A stretch of DNA of 64,000 nt from a bacterium (GTDB lineage: Bacteria > UBA10199 > 2-02-FULL-50-16 > JAJFLM01): assembly GCA_965216315.1 (NCBI GenBank), contig CBDCFN010000016.1, positions 2,048,001 through 2,112,000 on the forward strand. The letters are read 5' to 3'. The notes beneath the pieces were generated by a model. That model searched no databases, was not told the DNA's origin, and was given only the letters and a program-made list of their open reading frames with translations. Position 1 is the first letter of the stretch, and each line of letters starts with the position of its first letter. Positions 3,293 to 61,799 of the stretch are shown piece after piece. The translations under genes were made by a program, and so were the position numbers.

Positions 3293-4342
3293 ATGTTGAT
3301 TCGCGGCAAAGCCCCCTTGCGTGTCAGTTTTGCGGGGGGCGGTTCAGATGTCTCCCCCTACTGTGATAAATACGGGGGCTGTGTCTTATCAACGACGATC
3401 GGGATGTACGCCTACGGCGCGCTAGAGGTACGTTCTGATCAGCAAGTTCATATTTGCTCTCTCGATTACAACCAAACCTTAAAATATGAATTAGGGAGTG
3501 AAATCAATCCCGGCGATAATCTCGCCTTTCTCCAGTCGGTCATTGAACGTTTGAAACCGCCCTCGGGACTCAACTTATACCTTCATTGTGACGCCCCGCC
3601 GGGAACCGGCTTGGGCTCTTCCGGTACTATTTCCGCCTTGATTATCGGCCTGCTCAACAATGCCTTTAATATGAAGATGACGAAAGGAGATATGGCGCAA
3701 GTTGCCTACGAAATCGAACATGATGATCTCGGCCGTGCCGTCGGTCGGCAAGACCATTACGCCGCCGTCTATGGAGGTATGAACTTCATCGAATTCGGAA
3801 AAGAGACTTCGGTTGTCTACCCAATCCGCGTCGAACCGTGGATCTTGGAGGAACTCGGTTATCAGCTCCAAATGTTCTACACTCAAAAAAAACGCGACTC
3901 ATCGGATATCGTCGCCAACCAAATCAAATTTTACGAACAGGAACGCAAAGAAACCCTCGAGGCGTTGGCTAAAATGAAGGGACTCGCCCAAGAGATGCAG
4001 GAATGCCTGATTCAAGGTCAATTGCATCGTTTTGGCGAATTACTCCATGAAGGCTGGCTCGCCAAAAAAAGAATGAACCCGGGAACAGTCAACCCCTTCC
4101 TTGAAGACCTTTACACGACCGCGTTAGCAAACGGGGCGATTGGCGGTAAAATAACCGGTGCCGGCGGTGGTGGTTTCTTTGTCTTCTTTACTCCGTTTAT
4201 CCAAAAAAAGGCCGTCGCCGATGCCTTGAATGCCAAGGGAGCGCAACCGGTTCCCTTCTTACTCGATTTTAAAGGACTCCAAACCTGGGAAGTGGCTGAT
4301 CAGAGTTTAGGTGACGTCGGCGAAGGGATATTTGATCATTGA
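3293..4342 (+). CDS. hddA: D-glycero-alpha-D-manno-heptose-7-phosphate kinase (GHMP family)
   Basis: APLRVSFAGGGSD, PPGTGLGSSG, GRQDHYAA, GGKITGAGGGG; operon context with gmhA/gmhB. Confidence 0.88.
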   Translation: MLIRGKAPLRVSFAGGGSDVSPYCDKYGGCVLSTTIGMYAYGALEVRSDQQVHICSLDYNQTLKYELGSEINPGDNLAFLQSVIERLKPPSGLNLYLHCDAPPGTGLGSSGTISALIIGLLNNAFNMKMTKGDMAQVAYEIEHDDLGRAVGRQDHYAAVYGGMNFIEFGKETSVVYPIRVEPWILEELGYQLQMFYTQKKRDSSDIVANQIKFYEQERKETLEALAKMKGLAQEMQECLIQGQLHRFGELLHEGWLAKKRMNPGTVNPFLEDLYTTALANGAIGGKITGAGGGGFFVFFTPFIQKKAVADALNAKGAQPVPFLLDFKGLQTWEVADQSLGDVGEGIFDH

Positions 4343-54999: not shown

Positions 55000-56592
55000 T
55001 CAGCTCATATATAGCCTGTCGCGCATTTTATCCAGGATTTTCGGTATTTGCAGCGTCAATTCCTGATCGGCATCAATGCTCAAGACATCGGCTATTTCGC
55101 AACCTTCAATAGCCGCGTACGCTGCAAGTTGTTGCGCCAATATCCTCTCGTCGGCCTCAGAGGCATCCACCCCTCCTTGAGCTCGCCGTTCAACGCGCGC
55201 ACGCAAAGTTGCTGGTGACGCCCGTATATCCAAAATGAGGAACGGGACGGAGCACTTGAGTGCCACGGCACGACAGAGCGCCCTTTGCTCGGCCTTCAAA
55301 AAGGTCCCATCAATGATCACGGGGTAACCATTCTCGAGACAAGCCGCTGCCCGTGTCGCAAGATATTCATAAAGCCATTCACTGGTCTCGGCACTATACA
55401 TTTTATCTTTGAGCGGGCCCTCGCTTGATTCATCCACCGCAAGCTTAAAACGCCGTTTTCGCTCAACATCGGTGCGCAGGCCAATCGCGCTAAGCTCATC
55501 ACGCGCGGCACGCGCCAGCAGTGACTTTCCGGAACCCGAGAGACCGCGAGTAATACATAGAAAGAGCGGCGGTTGTGCGCAGGTTTGTAGCGCCAATTGC
55601 AGATACGATGATAACTCTTCAATAAGTGAATCATGCTCCGAACCGTTCTCGCCTGCCTGCTGGAGCCGAATCGCAGCAATCTTGGCCCGCACCAGTGCCC
55701 GATAGACCCGGTAGAAGCGAAGCACACTCAAGCCTTCATAGTCCCCGGTCCATTCGAGATAATGATTGAGCAGCCGACTCGCATAGGTGGGTGCCTGCCT
55801 GCCGGCCAGGCAGGCCTGTCTATCTTCCAAGTCCATAATGGCAAAGGCCAGCTCATTCATCACATCGATCCAGCGGAGGCGCTCACTGAATTCAATGGCA
55901 TCGAAGAGCACGGGAGTCTCATCGAGCAGAATCATATTGGCTAGATGCGCATCTCCATGGCATTCACGCACAAAGCCGCTCTGCTTGCGCCGCTGAAACA
56001 CCGCTTTTTTGCGGTTAAATTCGTCACGGCACCATTGCTCGATCTGGCTGAGCTGTTCGATCTGTGTTTGATCAAACAGGAGAGGTCTCAACTGCAAAAA
56101 ACATTCTTCGACCGGTTTGATAAGCACCTCCGGGTCCCCAAACTCTTTATCTTCAGTGGCCACGGCACACTTCGAATGAAAATCGGCCAGCCGCCGCGCC
56201 AACTGATCAATGTGTTCCGGAGATAGCTCCCCTCGCTCCAGCACGTGATCGAGCCGCGTCGCCTGGTCAAAGCGCTTCATTTTGACCGCATACTCAATCG
56301 CCGGGCCAGGGCCATCGATTACAGGGTCTGCTTCGGTACCTGTGATTTTAACGACCGCTAAATAAAGTTGCGGGGCTAAGCGACGATTGAGTCGTAGTTC
56401 TTCCTGACAATAGAAGTGACGATCTTCTAATTTTCTGAAATCAAGAAAACCCAGATCGAGCGGCTTCTTGATCTTATAGACGTAATCTCCAGCCAAGAGC
56501 ACCCACGAGATGTGGGTCTCCATCAATTCCACCCGCTCGACCGGGTGGTCATAACGGCTCGGATCCTGAAGTGCCTGAATCAGTAGATCCAT
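55000..56592 (-). CDS. Bifunctional aminoglycoside-phosphotransferase-like / AAA_33 P-loop kinase
   Basis: ETHISWV, ELRLNRRLAP, ECHGDAHL.N, D.IEF; GLSGSGKS, DGTFL, DASEAD. Confidence 0.92.
   Translation of the reverse strand: MDLLIQALQDPSRYDHPVERVELMETHISWVLLAGDYVYKIKKPLDLGFLDFRKLEDRHFYCQEELRLNRRLAPQLYLAVVKITGTEADPVIDGPGPAIEYAVKMKRFDQATRLDHVLERGELSPEHIDQLARRLADFHSKCAVATEDKEFGDPEVLIKPVEECFLQLRPLLFDQTQIEQLSQIEQWCRDEFNRKKAVFQRRKQSGFVRECHGDAHLANMILLDETPVLFDAIEFSERLRWIDVMNELAFAIMDLEDRQACLAGRQAPTYASRLLNHYLEWTGDYEGLSVLRFYRVYRALVRAKIAAIRLQQAGENGSEHDSLIEELSSYLQLALQTCAQPPLFLCITRGLSGSGKSLLARAARDELSAIGLRTDVERKRRFKLAVDESSEGPLKDKMYSAETSEWLYEYLATRAAACLENGYPVIIDGTFLKAEQRALCRAVALKCSVPFLILDIRASPATLRARVERRAQGGVDASEADERILAQQLAAYAAIEGCEIADVLSIDADQELTLQIPKILDKMRDRLYMS
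55793..55815. repeat. Short palindromic element inside a coding sequence
   Basis: GCCTGCCTGCCGGCCAGGCAGGC; adds about 7 aa in frame. Confidence 0.7.
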
Positions 56593-56659
56593 ATTTTATG
56601 GCATAACAAATGTATTAAATTGTGTACACGGCTATACGAAAAATGCTTCGCTAAGCATT

Positions 56660-56706
56660 GGGGGCGCAGCGCCTGCCTAACGGCGAGACAGGCTACGCCC
56701 CCCTAC
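56660..56706. repeat. GTAG-REP-like hairpin with a nested GCCTGCCT...CAGGC palindrome
   Basis: GGGGGCGCAGC-[GCCTGCCTAACGGCGAGACAGGC]-TACGCCCCCC-TAC. Confidence 0.6.
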
Positions 56707-56712
56707 GCTCGT

Positions 56713-56835
56713 CTACTGACAGCACTTCTCAAGCGCATCGGCCAGAGATCGCAGGGCCGAGGCAAATGAGTCGGCGCATTGGCAATCCTTGCAGCAATCA
56801 CAACAACTGCAACAGGATTTCTTTTCTTCACTCAT
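56713..56835 (-). CDS. Small Cys-rich (metallothionein-like) protein, 40 aa
   Basis: MSEEKKSCCSCCDCCKDCQCADSFASALRSLADALEKCCQ*; AGGAGG RBS; ATG overlaps the arsR stop; absent from the ORF track because of its size. Confidence 0.8.
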   Translation of the reverse strand: MSEEKKSCCSCCDCCKDCQCADSFASALRSLADALEKCCQ

Positions 56836-57187
56836 CGTTTGATCCTCCTATTTCTTTTGAGTCTTCCAGACAGGACTCCAGACAATCCGCAATCGAACGC
56901 AAGGTCTGCGCGACCTTCGAGGCGTTCACCGTGTAACGAACTTCTTTCCCCTGCTTCTTCGCCGCGAGGATGCCCGCCGCTTTGAGCTTGGCGAGATGGC
57001 GCGACACAACCGAAAGATCGACGTTGCAACAACCGGCCATCGCTTGGACCGTCTGACCCTCCTTTTGCTGACTTAAGCCCGTGAGCAGGGCAATCCGATT
57101 GGGGTCACAGAGGGCCTTGAAGAACTCTGGCTCCATCAATTCCCCCAGATCCGGGCAGCAGGCATCTTTTGGCTCTTTTTTGCTCAT
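56828..57187 (-). CDS. ArsR/SmtB family metalloregulator
   Basis: FKALCDPNRIALL, SVVSRHL..LK.AG, KQGKEVRY; Cys pairs DACC and GCC plus C-terminal DCLESC. Confidence 0.92.
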   Translation of the reverse strand: MSKKEPKDACCPDLGELMEPEFFKALCDPNRIALLTGLSQQKEGQTVQAMAGCCNVDLSVVSRHLAKLKAAGILAAKKQGKEVRYTVNASKVAQTLRSIADCLESCLEDSKEIGGSNDE

Positions 57188-57223
57188 TTGCACAAATATG
57201 CAATTATAAACTCGGTTTGTCAA
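57188..57223 (-). promoter_or_regulatory. Putative leaderless sigma70 promoter and ArsR operator
   Basis: TTGACA-N17-CATATT-N7-ATG, with a TTGCA-N6-TGCAA inverted repeat over the -10. Confidence 0.55.
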
Positions 57224-57299
57224 GTCCGTTCACGGCAAACGGAGCGCTGCGTCATGGCAATTTCCTGAAATGATTGAGAAATCGGGCCCAAATAGCCCA

Positions 57300-57346: not shown

Positions 57347-59557
57347 ATGAACGTAGGACTCACTTCAACATTGTCACTGAATAACGCCCTGCTCGCCTCG
57401 GCGAGTACGGCCGTCAATACCGGTACGCAAACGGCTTTTTATACGAGCTCCCCCCAATTGAGCCTGGGGGAAGAAAGCACCACCCTCTACGCCGCGGATC
57501 CCCAGTTTGAGCATTTAGGAAAAAGATCGATGTGGGATAATGCCGGCCTGGACCGTCGTATCCACTCGGCCCACCGCAACCTCGTCACGATGGCCACCGC
57601 CCCGCTCTACTTGGATACTCAGCTCAAACACGCCACGCGCGATCATCAAGGCAAACGCATCGGTCTGCAGATCCAGGGAGACGTATCGGACACACCGAGT
57701 GATTATGAATCCGAATCCCTGGAGACGGTCTTGGATAACCACCCCAAACTCCCGGTCGAAGGATTTGATCGCGGCAATCACAGTAGCGGAAACTTCTTCG
57801 GCGTCTTCAACCTGAGAAGTCGCCTTAATAAATGGGTGCGCAAATGGATCTTTGGCGATCGTGTAGACACCTTTGAAGAACAATTGAATGAAGCCGCAGG
57901 CGGTGCCAAACATGTCCTGACCCCCAAGAAGACCTTTGAGACGATGCATCGGATTCTTCATCGCCATCGCGATGATCGCGGCCAAGTTGTAGAGCGGATC
58001 AATACCGCGGTCCAAAAGGCGGATTACAATGGTTATCGACTCAACAATGGTGAACAGGGACAATTTACCGCAACATCGCTGAATGAAAATTTTCATACCT
58101 TTTGGCACAGTTCTAAAGGCACTAAACTGGCAACACCAAGTGAATCACCTTACTGGGACTGCCTGGTTAACTATCAAGTGGCTGATCTCGATGCGGGCGA
58201 ACGGGGGACTAAGGTCACTCCCTTTTACATCCAAGCGTCTCAAGATGCGCGCTTCAAATTAGAAGACGGACGGGAAGTTCCCGTCTATTCGATCAGTATC
58301 GATACCAGTGACACGGACAACCCCTTTGTGGTTTTTCCCGGCATGTCGGCACTGCAGGTTCGGCTGATCGAGACCTTTATCGATTACGTCCGCCAACACC
58401 AACCGGAGGCCCGCTTTAAGCTCAGCGCCCATTTTCCCGCCGCGCGTATCATCCAACAACCGAAAGGAATTCTGGGTAGAGTATGGAGTTGGATTAATCC
58501 CTTCGTCGATCGTAAAGTCCGGCGCGCCTTCAAGCGCCTGCTCAGCCGCGAAGAGATCATTTTCTTCAATAGCGCCCACACCCACGACCGCGAAGTGAAT
58601 GACCTTACCAAAAGACTCGGGCTTAAACGCAAGACCCCACTGCCTGAAGTAGTGGTTCCTTCGCTGACCGATTATGAACCCGTCCAACCCAAAGGTCAGG
58701 AGCGTCCCCAGGATGGCCGCGCCCTCGCGATTGAGCGTATCTGGACCGAAAAAAATCCGGACGGCACACATGAACTCAAAGTCGATGTAGACTTTAAGGG
58801 TGTCGATCCCGAAGACCTGAGAGACAGGGGACTGACTTCGGAGGTTGAGGCGGCCTTAGCTCCTTATCGCCAGGACGGCAAACATAGTTATCAGCGTACC
58901 CTCGATACGATGTCGGAAAAATTCGGCCGTCCGCGCTGGCTGGGCTTTGGGGGTCAGTTTGGACGCCAGCTCTGGAAAAATTTCTTTAAAAAACGCGCTA
59001 AAAGTGTGTTTCGTTTTATTCATACCGCCGTACTCCCACTCCCCCTCCTTTGGGTTCCTTTCTTTTGGAAACGCCTAAAAAATTATTGGTGGGAACACCC
59101 GTCCATCATCCAAGACATCAAGGATTCCTTAACGACGGTGGCCACGGAACAAATGTTCAATGAGGCGGAGCACCTCCTTCCCTTTCTCCACTCACTGACA
59201 CGCTTTGTCGAAAAAGATGTAGAGGCGGGTCACATCGCCTCTGAAGCGATACTCTTAGGCTTGAGAGAAATTTCACGAGATCTGAATGCTCAATTAGAAG
59301 CAAGGCGTTACACCTTTAACGCCGCCGTTGCAGCAGGCGAGGATGCGGCACGCCTGGCCACGTTTAACGATTTACTTGAAACCTCCAGAGTCTTTCGCCT
59401 GCCTTCATTGCTCGTCGGCCTCAAAGAGGATAGTGAAGCCCGCGCCTTTGCAGTGATGGTCGGCCTCGAGGCATCCGAGGTTGAATACAAATTTCAAGGG
59501 TTGAAACCTACGACTGTACCGAACGATGCACTGAATTTTACTGTACCTCTAGGATAA
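57347..59557 (+). CDS. Divergent calcineurin-like metallophosphoesterase, paralogue 1
   Basis: ADPQ, GDVSD, GNHS, AHFP, AHTH in canonical order. Confidence 0.7.
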   Translation: MNVGLTSTLSLNNALLASASTAVNTGTQTAFYTSSPQLSLGEESTTLYAADPQFEHLGKRSMWDNAGLDRRIHSAHRNLVTMATAPLYLDTQLKHATRDHQGKRIGLQIQGDVSDTPSDYESESLETVLDNHPKLPVEGFDRGNHSSGNFFGVFNLRSRLNKWVRKWIFGDRVDTFEEQLNEAAGGAKHVLTPKKTFETMHRILHRHRDDRGQVVERINTAVQKADYNGYRLNNGEQGQFTATSLNENFHTFWHSSKGTKLATPSESPYWDCLVNYQVADLDAGERGTKVTPFYIQASQDARFKLEDGREVPVYSISIDTSDTDNPFVVFPGMSALQVRLIETFIDYVRQHQPEARFKLSAHFPAARIIQQPKGILGRVWSWINPFVDRKVRRAFKRLLSREEIIFFNSAHTHDREVNDLTKRLGLKRKTPLPEVVVPSLTDYEPVQPKGQERPQDGRALAIERIWTEKNPDGTHELKVDVDFKGVDPEDLRDRGLTSEVEAALAPYRQDGKHSYQRTLDTMSEKFGRPRWLGFGGQFGRQLWKNFFKKRAKSVFRFIHTAVLPLPLLWVPFFWKRLKNYWWEHPSIIQDIKDSLTTVATEQMFNEAEHLLPFLHSLTRFVEKDVEAGHIASEAILLGLREISRDLNAQLEARRYTFNAAVAAGEDAARLATFNDLLETSRVFRLPSLLVGLKEDSEARAFAVMVGLEASEVEYKFQGLKPTTVPNDALNFTVPLG

Positions 59558-59570
59558 GGCGCTTACTGAT

Positions 59571-61799
59571 ATGATCGGCGGACTCGCACAATCACTGCAC
59601 GCATCGAGCACTGCCAGCCTGATGCTCGCAAGCTGCATCATTCAACCGGGAGAGGTCTGCAGAACGATATACGTTTCCGATACCCAGTTGCAGCATCTCG
59701 GGCGCCGACCGTTTACGGATAACCCGCTCATCAAACGACTTTCTCCCCCCGCCGACCGCAATGTCATCGCCACTCAAACAGCAGACGTCTTTATTGACGA
59801 GCTACTCCGCCAAACCTGTGCAAAATTGCAACAAGAGGAACAAGCGACAGCCGAACGGGCACCGACTCACCTCCCTTCAGCAGAACCTCATGATGAATCA
59901 CACAAAATTAAGTCCTCACGAATCAATACGATTGTGCTCGGTGACATGGCGGACACGCCGATTAAAAGTGAATACCTCCGCTTTGAACAACTGATGAATG
60001 GACACCCCCTAGATGTCCGAGTCGTCGTACGCGGCAATCACAGCAGTGCCAACGCCTTTGGCGTCGTCAATCTCCAAAGTCGTAAATACCGGAAATTGCG
60101 CGGTACGCGTGGACTCCGCCAATACTCACTGCGTGCCGAGGTCGAAGAGGTTGCCGGCAAACCGAAGTATTTACTCTCAGGCCATGGAACATTTAATGGG
60201 ATGCGCCGCTTGATCCATGACAACGAACAAAGCGCGCCGAGCCTAAATGATATCAACGTCAGTATCGCCGCAGCGGACTATGACGGCTATGCTCTCCCCG
60301 GAAGTGCAGATAAAATTCCCTTTGATGAGGCCCATCGCGCTCAGAACTTCACCACCTTCTGGAAACCCGTTATCAGACAAGACCCGGCTAAAAATGAACA
60401 GCCCAGCTGGGAGTGCCTCGTTAACTGTCAGGAAATCGACCGCGAAGAGGCTGATCGAGAAACACCTGTAACCCCTTTCTATATTCAGGCTACGGAACAA
60501 TCGCGCTTTCATTTAAAGGACGGTTCCGAGATCCCGGTCTATACGATCAGTATGGATGGTCTCGACAACAATAATTTGCTGCCTGCTATCAACGCGGAGA
60601 TGTCGGAATTGCAAATTCGCGCCATTGAAACCTTTATGGACCAGATGCTGCAGCAAAATCCGCAAGCCCGTTTCAAATTAGCCTGCCACTATTCGAGTCA
60701 GGAAATGCTCAAATCACCCTGGATCCGACGTTGGCGCGGCCGGCGCATGCGCAAGGCCTTGCGCCGCCTGCTCAGCCGCGAAGAAGTCATTCTCTATACC
60801 TATGGTCATACCCATGAGCGCGAGGTCGTCGACCTCAACAAAGAACTCAAACTCAAGCGTAAAACTCCGTTGATGCAGGTGAATGTCCCGTCCTTAATCG
60901 ACTATCACCCGGTGAAAGATGAACAAGCAAAAGTCGAGGCCTACCCCTACCGGGATGCGCGCGCGCTAATGATCGAAAGAACGTACGTCGAACAAAATGA
61001 TGACGGTGACGCTGAGTTAAAAATCGACCTTCAATTCAATGGCATTAATTGGGATGACATGAAAGACGAGGGACTCACGGACAAAGTTAAAGAAGCCCTC
61101 AAAGAGTATCGCGAAAACTACGGCTATGCGCGCTCCGTCGAAACCATGCACCTCTTACGCAAGCAACACTTCTGGGGTTGGATTCATAGTCATTGGAAGC
61201 GCGGGGGTGAGGCTATCTGGGGTTCATTAAGCGACTTGATCAAGCTTCCCGTAAACGCCTTTAACAAATACTTACGCGGTACTTACGACGGCCCCCTGTT
61301 CGCCTACTGGAATGACGTTTCATTCTTCAAATATATCATCGACAACTTCACTGTCGTCTCAACGGTCAAGATGTTCAGTGAGGCCCTTTATCTGAGACAC
61401 TTCATCAAATCGTTGGAAACCCTCATCGAGGATGATAACGATCCCGAAGAACTCGCGATCGCAGCGCAACTCAAAAGCATGCGTATCGCCCTAACCGATG
61501 AGTACGCCGACCGCCGCCATGATTTTGAAGCCGCCCTCAACAGCGGCGAGCGCCCCTCGGAGCTGCGCCAATACAATGATCTCTTTGAACGCACCCGCAC
61601 CTACGAGCTCTGTAAGCTGCTCCTCCAACTCAAACCGGGCGGCCAGGCCCGCGCCTTCGCCGTGATTGCCGGCATCCAGGCCTCCCGAGAAGAATTTGAA
61701 TATCATAAGAAGAAACCGACCGAGATACCCAACAAGATCCCGACGATCTCCATCCCGATCGGACGGACCCAGGCGAGCCAACAGGCCGTCGGTGGCTAG
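59571..61799 (+). CDS. Divergent calcineurin-like metallophosphoesterase, paralogue 2
   Basis: SDTQ, GDMAD, GNHS, CHYS, GHTH; colinear similarity with the upstream gene. Confidence 0.7.
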   Translation: MIGGLAQSLHASSTASLMLASCIIQPGEVCRTIYVSDTQLQHLGRRPFTDNPLIKRLSPPADRNVIATQTADVFIDELLRQTCAKLQQEEQATAERAPTHLPSAEPHDESHKIKSSRINTIVLGDMADTPIKSEYLRFEQLMNGHPLDVRVVVRGNHSSANAFGVVNLQSRKYRKLRGTRGLRQYSLRAEVEEVAGKPKYLLSGHGTFNGMRRLIHDNEQSAPSLNDINVSIAAADYDGYALPGSADKIPFDEAHRAQNFTTFWKPVIRQDPAKNEQPSWECLVNCQEIDREEADRETPVTPFYIQATEQSRFHLKDGSEIPVYTISMDGLDNNNLLPAINAEMSELQIRAIETFMDQMLQQNPQARFKLACHYSSQEMLKSPWIRRWRGRRMRKALRRLLSREEVILYTYGHTHEREVVDLNKELKLKRKTPLMQVNVPSLIDYHPVKDEQAKVEAYPYRDARALMIERTYVEQNDDGDAELKIDLQFNGINWDDMKDEGLTDKVKEALKEYRENYGYARSVETMHLLRKQHFWGWIHSHWKRGGEAIWGSLSDLIKLPVNAFNKYLRGTYDGPLFAYWNDVSFFKYIIDNFTVVSTVKMFSEALYLRHFIKSLETLIEDDNDPEELAIAAQLKSMRIALTDEYADRRHDFEAALNSGERPSELRQYNDLFERTRTYELCKLLLQLKPGGQARAFAVIAGIQASREEFEYHKKKPTEIPNKIPTISIPIGRTQASQQAVGG

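Follow-up and report, generated by a model that had tools for sequence, protein, structure and literature searches.

A cysteine-rich micropeptide gene overlapping arsR: a candidate metal(loid) buffer made together with its own sensor

In cyanobacteria, repressors of the ArsR/SmtB family control bacterial metallothioneins, as in the SmtB-SmtA and BxmR-MtnA pairs. SmtA is a BmtA-family protein that binds Zn or Cd through Cys and His in a zinc-finger-like fold, and its gene is transcribed divergently from smtB. The arsenic metallochaperone ArsD, a protein of about 120 residues encoded in ars operons, has a thioredoxin-like fold with conserved Cys12, Cys13 and Cys18 and delivers As(III) to the ArsA ATPase. 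In eukaryotes, the microProteins Id and LITTLE ZIPPER are proven to heterodimerise with transcription factors. Here, we analyse a stretch of 64,000 nucleotides (nt) of bacterial DNA (hereafter the window; contig CBDCFN010000016.1, positions 2,048,001 to 2,112,000), in which a 40-codon gene for a peptide with ten cysteines overlaps the 3' end of arsR, the gene of an ArsR/SmtB metalloregulator. The second half of this micropeptide resembles the C-terminal helix of the ArsR encoded just upstream.

Two further systems bear on the locus. MymT is a mycobacterial Cu(I) metallothionein under the control of a Cu-sensing repressor (excerpt of PMC11672702). In AfArsR, Cys95, Cys96 and Cys102 form a type-2 As(III) site at the ends of the antiparallel C-terminal dimerisation helices (excerpt of PMC11868830). 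Throughout, metal(loid) sites formed by ArsR cysteines are called type 1 when located in α3, type 2 at the end of α5 and type 3 at the N-terminus. A full-text literature search, which did not extend to supplements, returned no article whose title or abstract opening concerned a Cys-rich micropeptide coupled to arsR.

The micropeptide gene and its relatives

The gene pair comprises the following features, all on the minus strand.

56828..57187 (minus): arsR, ArsR/SmtB metalloregulator, 119 residues from the ATG (NF033788, HTH_20, the AlphaFold2 model and PDB profiles)
56855..56923 (minus): terminal helix α5 of ArsR, residues 89-111, the template of the second half of the peptide (AlphaFold2 model)
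56713..56835 (minus): gene of the 40-residue, 10-Cys micropeptide, including the stop codon (list of open reading frames and conserved relatives)
56844..56849 (minus): Shine-Dalgarno sequence AGGAGG of the peptide gene, within the 3' end of arsR, 8 nt ahead of the ATG
56776..56814 (minus): Cys-cluster half of the peptide, residues 8-20, CCSCCDCCKDCQC (sequence; AlphaFold2 confidence score pLDDT 49-51)
56716..56778 (minus): α5-like helix and CC of the peptide, residues 20-40 (AlphaFold2 helix, α5 profile and hhalign)

The peptide is encoded by an ATG-initiated open reading frame (ORF) at 56713..56835 on the minus strand and contains 10 Cys among its 40 residues (25%), with the sequence MSEEKKSCCSCCDCCKDCQCADSFASALRSLADALEKCCQ. 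The ATG (56833-56835) lies within ATGAGTGA and the TGA of arsR occupies 56828-56830, so that the two genes overlap by 8 nt. Together with the Shine-Dalgarno sequence, this overlap indicates translational coupling of arsR and the peptide gene. A composition this rich in Cys is exceptional in the 2.96-Mb genome that contains the window. Among its ATG-initiated ORFs of 20-110 residues, 64 reach 5 Cys and a Cys content of 12% (about 0.002 per 210-nt interval), and the micropeptide alone reaches 8 Cys and 20%. Its exact sequence was not found in a collection of 15 billion proteins, suggesting that gene callers never called the ORF. The window peptide matched no family in Pfam at E values up to 1 or in NCBIfam, and ten related peptides searched against Pfam at E values up to 10 gave a single match, a choline transporter at chance level. 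In the AlphaFold2 model of the peptide, residues 19-39 form a helix (pLDDT 78-86), while the Cys cluster is unstructured (pLDDT about 50), as expected without metal.

The upstream protein is a member of the ArsR/SmtB family, with a winged helix-turn-helix (HTH) that scores above the profile cut-offs of both NCBIfam NF033788 HTH_metalloreg (59 bits, cut-off 55) and Pfam HTH_20 (2.7e-9; 37.3 bits, cut-off 27). Its PDB profile matches include SmtB (1e-13), CzrA, AfArsR and others. The AlphaFold2 model (pLDDT 80) shows a winged helix with a two-strand wing and a long terminal helix at residues 89-111. This stretch aligns to the chain end of SmtB (up to residue 121 of 122) and to the C-terminal part of AfArsR, and we take it to be α5. 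Candidate metal(loid)-sensing cysteines of the window ArsR include the CC at residues 53-54 in an invariant CC.VD.SV.SRHL motif, the CC at residues 10-11, and C102/C106.

A search of 61 related genomes with the window ArsR gave seven genomes with a match at E ≤ 1e-5. Behind each of the three closest homologues within the phylum (G051, G045 and G010; 48-51% identity) lies a small Cys-rich ORF; these ORFs encode 44, 40 and 52 residues and overlap the arsR stop by 11, 4 and 4 nt, respectively. The same search gave six weaker ArsR loci (L010-L015); three of them, L010, L012 and L013, were located again by tblastn and have no peptide, and L011, L014 and L015 lay outside this check. Beyond the phylum, we scanned genomes of all species with an ArsR alignment and took the best 80 of at least 491 relatives, 77 of which have a complete arsR 3' end. 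Among these best 80, a helix-type peptide follows arsR in two groundwater delta-proteobacterial metagenome-assembled genomes (MAGs), L029 and L034, with the 8-nt overlap and the ATGnnTGA form of the window locus, and in a Bdellovibrionaceae MAG (L084), with an ATGA overlap with the arsR stop. Two further loci, L049 and L061, have peptide and ArsR sequences identical to those of G051 and G045. The sequence-only reading had claimed an unlisted 40-residue, 10-Cys ORF coupled to arsR and had proposed inspecting the DNA behind close ArsR homologues. Both the ORF with its overlap and AGGAGG, and coupled Cys-rich ORFs in the three phylum genomes and in the delta-proteobacterial and Bdellovibrionaceae MAGs, were found, contrary to the outcome that would have refuted the reading, namely homologous arsR genes with no conserved ORF behind them.

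Protein databases added few members. A peptide profile run against 1.84 billion representative sequences gave two matches and a word search with the profile gave three, together P0001-P0004, and an exact look-up gave P0006; all named database relatives are annotated 'hypothetical protein'. A word search with the window peptide alone gave no candidate, and a search of the ESM Atlas gave no usable match. In total, we count ten helix-type members (the window peptide, G051, G045, G010, L029, L034, L084, P0003, P0004 and P0006), of which seven have DNA available. In all seven, the start of the peptide gene and the stop of arsR overlap by 4-11 nt. A GGAG-type Shine-Dalgarno sequence lies 6-10 nt ahead of the ATG in all nine peptide genes examined, including these seven. 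Between L029 and L034, the peptide genes differ by nine synonymous and seven non-synonymous codons (32 identical), and the arsR genes by 29 synonymous and 14 non-synonymous codons (68 identical).

The peptides have a common layout, consisting of a short K/E-rich N-terminus, an invariant CC, a variable Cys stretch composed mostly of CC pairs, an amphipathic helix that ends in CC in most members, and usually a K-rich tail. The first CC pair is invariant in the nine aligned members and further CC pairs recur, and the remainder of the N-terminal half is variable, as in metallothioneins. A second type without the helix, 29-34 residues long and rich in CxC, is encoded in two Emcibacteraceae/Kordiimonadaceae MAGs (L069 and L073), where it starts 13 nt after arsR; neither peptide matched Pfam. 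L067 has a similar CxC ORF.

L069, 3304-3393: helix-less CxC peptide
L073, 2318-2422: helix-less CxC peptide
L067, about 3300-3391 (start not fixed): helix-less CxC peptide

In an ArsR tree of 67 sequences, made by a quick method with weak support, the window ArsR groups with those of L029 and L034 (Shimodaira-Hasegawa-like approximate likelihood ratio test, SH-aLRT, 88), and the remaining peptide-bearing ArsRs form, together with two peptide-less members, a second group (SH-aLRT 86). Scanning metagenomes with the window ArsR yielded 80 loci, mostly with distant ArsRs at 30-47% identity, and a credible coupled Cys ORF was found in none of the 71 loci with at least 150 nt downstream. The 4-Cys ORFs of three of these loci (L127, L173 and L174) were rejected as unrelated. 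Since relatives exist, the translation signals recur and this metagenome set was negative, the 40-codon ORF coupled to arsR is, as judged by comparative sequence analysis, a real gene, conserved yet rare, that is tied specifically to this ArsR subfamily.

We also rejected apparent Cys ORFs after arsR in four GC-rich Planctomycetota loci (L046, L059, L065 and L078). They are R/G/W-rich, have the common motif ..CCSCA.GTRA..RW.. where the LMWPc or methyltransferase gene begins, and were judged to be out-of-frame translations; the motif is a trap for Cys-based ORF screens.

Likeness of the peptide helix to ArsR α5

Residues 21-36 of the peptide are identical to ArsR residues 89-104 at 9 of 16 positions in the best register, and the register given by the sequence-only reading also yields 9 of 16. 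At least nine identities arose in 2 of 5000 shuffles of the whole peptide and in 1 of 5000 shuffles of its second half. Six of the nine common residues use different codons, and the nucleotide identity is 26 of 48. Thus the 9-of-16 match and the predominance of differing codons, both claimed from the sequence, hold up.

Profile comparisons extend this likeness beyond a single pair. When nine peptides were aligned to their seven cognate ArsRs with hhalign, peptide residues 22-39 fell on ArsR residues 90-107 with a score of 31.4 (P 5.2e-6, probability 86%), and none of 300 column-shuffled controls reached this score (mean 8.6, maximum 16.9). As a more independent test, we built a profile of α5 and the CC from 25 ArsRs of the subfamily that lack a peptide (consensus ..LLRALADALEACC..). 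With this profile, the window peptide scored 28.5 bits over residues 20-40, L029 scored 19.4 bits and L034 scored 19.5 bits, and none of 300 shuffles of each peptide reached the respective score. The other six of the nine helix-type peptides were not above their own shuffles. Helix residues 29-39 of the window peptide, LRSLADALEKCC, agree with 10 of the 12 positions of the subfamily consensus LRaLADALEaCC, and the positions common to the peptide helix and ArsR include polar ones (R, S, D and E) besides hydrophobic ones.

The claimed copy of the ArsR C-terminal helix is therefore clear for three of nine peptides, on stronger grounds than the sequence-only reading had available. Since six peptides do not rise above their shuffles, homology of the second half to ArsR α5 and its CC is firm for the branch of the window, L029 and L034, and only suggestive for the rest. 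In these three, homology to the dimerisation element of the regulator is combined with the absence of an HTH, as in a microprotein. Similarity between peptide helix and ArsR is not higher within cognate pairs than across loci (cognate sum 131 versus a permutation mean of 154; 96% of permutations reach at least 131). The α5-like helix is thus likely to reflect an old common origin or a shared constraint, with no sign of recent duplication or pairwise co-evolution.

The operon and its genomic surroundings

Three features delimit the predicted transcription unit.

57188..57203 (minus): operator-like inverted repeat TTGCA-N6-TGCAA abutting the arsR ATG (core kept in seven of seven cognate loci)
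57195..57223 (minus): sigma-70-like promoter, TTGACA, 17 nt, CATATT, with the -10 inside the operator (10 of 12 matches)
56638..56710 (minus): GC-rich hairpin and U-run after the peptide stop, a likely terminator (folding energy)

Ahead of all seven cognate arsR genes stand a TTGAC-type -35 element and a conserved inverted repeat, TGCA-N-TGCA, which overlaps the -10 and abuts the ATG. The putative operator thus lies in the promoter of arsR itself, as in autoregulated ArsR/SmtB genes. In the window (57188-57226) and upstream of L007, L008, L009, L029, L034 and L084, operator and -10 abut the arsR ATG, and L084 carries two or three copies of a TTGCATA..TATGCAA repeat. Since operator and -10 abut the ATG in all seven loci, the mRNA may be leaderless; the arrangement suggests an arsR-peptide transcript that is leaderless or nearly so and self-repressed.

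At the other end, the hairpin has a minimum free energy of -50.9 kcal/mol (z -4.34), and none of 200 shuffles was as stable. A scan for consensus terminators found none and left the hairpin at 56638..56710 unflagged. Beyond it lies an APH/AAA_33 kinase-like gene, with no arsenic or efflux gene downstream. The 16-bp operator-like site has one exact copy in the 2.96-Mb genome and no other occurrence with up to one mismatch. Both earlier claims about the operon are in line with these observations: no arsenic or metal efflux gene follows the hairpin, and the hairpin and the genome-unique operator fit a peptide that is the only co-transcribed target. Since the operator is unique in the genome, the peptide appears as the only evident cargo of the window ArsR.

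The kinase-like gene (55000-56592, minus strand) encodes 530 residues with an APH phosphotransferase-like N-terminal part and an AAA_33 kinase-like C-terminal part. Divergently from arsR, two large ORFs stand in tandem (57347-59557 and 59571-61799, plus strand; 736 and 742 residues). By eye they are paralogue-like, having RGNHSS..F/GV.NL.SR and TPFYIQA stretches in common, and the 736-residue protein matched no Pfam family. We considered and rejected a precursor of a ribosomally synthesized and post-translationally modified peptide, as no modifying enzyme occurs among the scanned neighbours (the kinase-like protein and the familyless 736-residue protein). A leader peptide or attenuator was likewise rejected, since the ORF sits after arsR rather than ahead of a regulated gene and the hairpin stands behind the ORF.

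What the ArsR subfamily usually guards was assessed from the first downstream ORF on the same strand in 56 peptide-less loci from the best 80 relatives.

29 of 56: ArsM-type methyltransferase (one fused to LMWPc)
6 of 56: LMWPc (ArsC-like)
5 of 56: CdhD-like (HgcA-like)
1 of 56: SBF/Acr3-like
1 of 56: DUF2703
1 of 56: ferredoxin-like
13 of 56: no family

A representative of the ArsM type matched the arsenite methyltransferase model NF008823 (292 bits, cut-off 263), and two HgcA representatives matched NF040863 (438 and 429 bits, cut-off 275). Since arsM, arsC and hgcA make up most of what the subfamily guards, the neighbourhood points to an arsenic or soft-metalloid context. Among the peptide-bearing loci, L061 has a MIP channel gene and an ArsC-like LMWPc gene after the peptide, L029 and L034 have a generic class-I methyltransferase gene, and in L067, L069 and L073 a CDF (Cation_efflux) gene lies upstream of arsR on the same strand. 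In the window genome, an ArsM-like gene is located 280 kb away.

The CdhD-like gene follows arsR in L027, L028, L040, L045 and L060, and the two checked encode HgcA, the corrinoid protein of mercury methylation; the same ArsR subfamily therefore guards both arsM and hgcA. An ArsR of hgcAB is the subject of a preprint (excerpt of 10.1101/2022.10.17.512643). Many peptide-less ArsRs (L046, L052, L056, L057, L059, L064, L065, L070, L072, L078 and L083) carry Cys-rich tails beyond the α5 CC, for example ..CCAEGCCA, ..GACHGKCC and ..CGSCSTSCGC. These tails place the same chemistry on the sensor chain, and may correspond, in fused form, to the free-standing peptide.

A sensor and its sponge, rival explanations and known systems

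We favour, with moderate confidence, the view that the peptide is an autoregulated, thiol-rich buffer of As(III) or another metal(loid), made together with its sensor. In this scheme, arsR and the 40-codon gene would form a self-repressed two-gene operon, in which ArsR bound to TTGCA-N6-TGCAA would block its own overlapping -10 until it is displaced from the operator by a thiophilic metal or metalloid, for which As(III) is the likeliest candidate. Coupled translation would then yield ArsR and the peptide together, the latter as the sole output of the operon. The vicinal Cys pairs would bind the metal(loid) as thiolates, ten Cys accommodating up to about three As(III) per peptide, and this binding would buffer the cytoplasm. 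The C-terminal half, as a copy of ArsR α5 with its CC positioned like a type-2 As(III) site, may provide a site like that found in the sensor family. In favour of the scheme are the conservation and translation signals of the gene, the metallothionein-like pattern of constant and variable Cys, the mostly arsenic-related genes guarded by the subfamily, the CxC peptides in the same slot next to a CDF gene, the Cys-rich tails of peptide-less ArsRs, and the unique operator with the hairpin behind the peptide. Which ligand is bound, binding as such and buffering as the physiological role are the parts of this scheme that we infer.

Several points weigh against it. The window ArsR has C102 and C106 (SCL) where its relatives have GCC at the end of α5, and the effector is therefore uncertain; since the subfamily guards hgcA, Hg or another soft metal is possible. 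ArsM-like, SBF and LMWPc genes occur elsewhere in the genome without this operator. Translation coupled to a repressor is an odd route to a bulk sink, and the capacity of forty residues is small. The family is also rare: a four-peptide profile matches 4 of 93 genomes of the phylum, itself a single class, namely the window genome and three of the six genomes of another family, and the 71 more distant metagenome loci gave no credible case.

The likeness to α5 also suggests an action on ArsR itself. The peptide would then be a regulator-derived microprotein, whose helix docks at or on the α5/α5' interface or bridges As(III) to ArsR cysteines. It would adjust repression, whether as a decoy, an anti-repressor or a co-sensor or as a chaperone that hands As(III) over, with the Cys cluster making this metal-dependent. 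We regard this as a possible but not a probable role. It draws on the homology of the helix to α5 (28.5, 19.4 and 19.5 bits; hhalign P 5.2e-6), on the polar as well as hydrophobic positions that the two have in common, and on coupled translation, which should keep the output of peptide and ArsR in a roughly fixed ratio. In AfArsR, moreover, the C-terminal helices are a dimerisation domain with a type-2 As(III) site (excerpt of PMC11868830). On the other hand, six of the nine helix-type peptides do not exceed their shuffles on the α5 profile, similarity is not specific to the cognate ArsR (131 versus a permutation mean of 154), and the Emcibacteraceae peptides occupy the same slot without a helix. 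In its boldest form, which we put forward tentatively, the peptide may be a free copy of α5 and its As(III) site with a polycysteine arm, docking on ArsR or sharing As(III) with it, and thereby setting the induction threshold or handing the metalloid over. Buffering and modulation of ArsR are not mutually exclusive.

A role apart from arsenic seems unlikely, although the locus offers some hints of one. The peptide could be a metallothionein for Cu(I), Cd, Zn or Hg, a thiol/persulfide redox buffer, or a carrier to a partner enzyme encoded elsewhere (ArsM or HgcA), given that related ArsRs guard hgcA (438 and 429 bits against NF040863), that the CxC peptides adjoin a Cation_efflux (CDF) gene, that the Cys pattern of the window ArsR is unusual and that an ArsM-like gene lies 280 kb away. 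However, the subfamily context is mostly that of arsenic (29 ArsM-type and 6 LMWPc genes of 56), and MIP and ArsC-like genes directly follow one peptide gene (L061). Vicinal cysteines are As(III) ligands in ArsD, too. The vicinal CC is likewise a known As(III) ligand pair in AfArsR (excerpt of PMC11868830). Least probable is that the ORF arose by chance or is what remains, without function, of a partial duplication of arsR. The resemblance of the second half to arsR and the lack of annotation would fit such an origin, but start, Shine-Dalgarno sequence, overlap and CC pairs are intact across at least three phylum-level lineages, synonymous exceed non-synonymous differences between L029 and L034, and no other ORF in the genome reaches 8 Cys and a Cys content of 20%.

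The peptide family is, by the sequence searches, mostly missed by gene callers and matches no known metallothionein. If the buffer interpretation is correct, the locus would be a minimal arsenic or metal defence module with one sensor, one sponge and no pump. The arsenic branch of the ArsR family would then have its own version of the SmtB-SmtA arrangement, and the peptide would be a compact As(III)-binding tag of natural origin, of use in biosensors or bioremediation. Should the peptide instead act on ArsR, bacteria would provide a clear example of a microprotein that derives from a regulator and acts on that same regulator. Such a feedback element embedded in the sensor is not known from any ArsR/SmtB protein and would open a testable question about how the ArsR threshold is set. 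Either way, coupled micro-ORFs behind metalloregulators merit systematic six-frame searches.

Among the described systems, SmtB-SmtA resembles the window locus in that a sensor of the ArsR/SmtB family has a small Cys-rich, here putative, metal binder as its main output. In size (40 residues) and Cys content (25%), the window peptide fits a metallothionein, as far as sequence alone can tell. Unlike SmtA, however, it has no Pfam or NCBIfam match and contains vicinal CC pairs, its gene is co-transcribed with and coupled downstream of arsR, and it occurs in an arsenic-type context with a helix apparently copied from the regulator; none of the peptides matches the BmtA/SmtA family profile. MymT is comparable as a very small Cys-rich cytoplasmic metal sink, a role that is putative here, under a metal-sensing repressor, but the regulator family and the metal differ, and word and profile searches with the peptide found no sequence relation. 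With ArsD, the vicinal Cys pairs are the sole common feature, since the peptide has 40 residues and no family match, ArsD included, and is modelled by AlphaFold2 as one helix with a disordered half. The terminal amphipathic helix ending in a vicinal CC recalls the type-2 site of AfArsR, whereas the peptide has no DNA-binding domain and the window ArsR has C102/C106 rather than GCC. Finally, like Id and LITTLE ZIPPER, the peptide is small, shows homology to the element through which a transcription factor dimerises and is devoid of the DNA-binding part; unlike them, it is bacterial and carries an additional Cys cluster, and its interaction with ArsR is a prediction.

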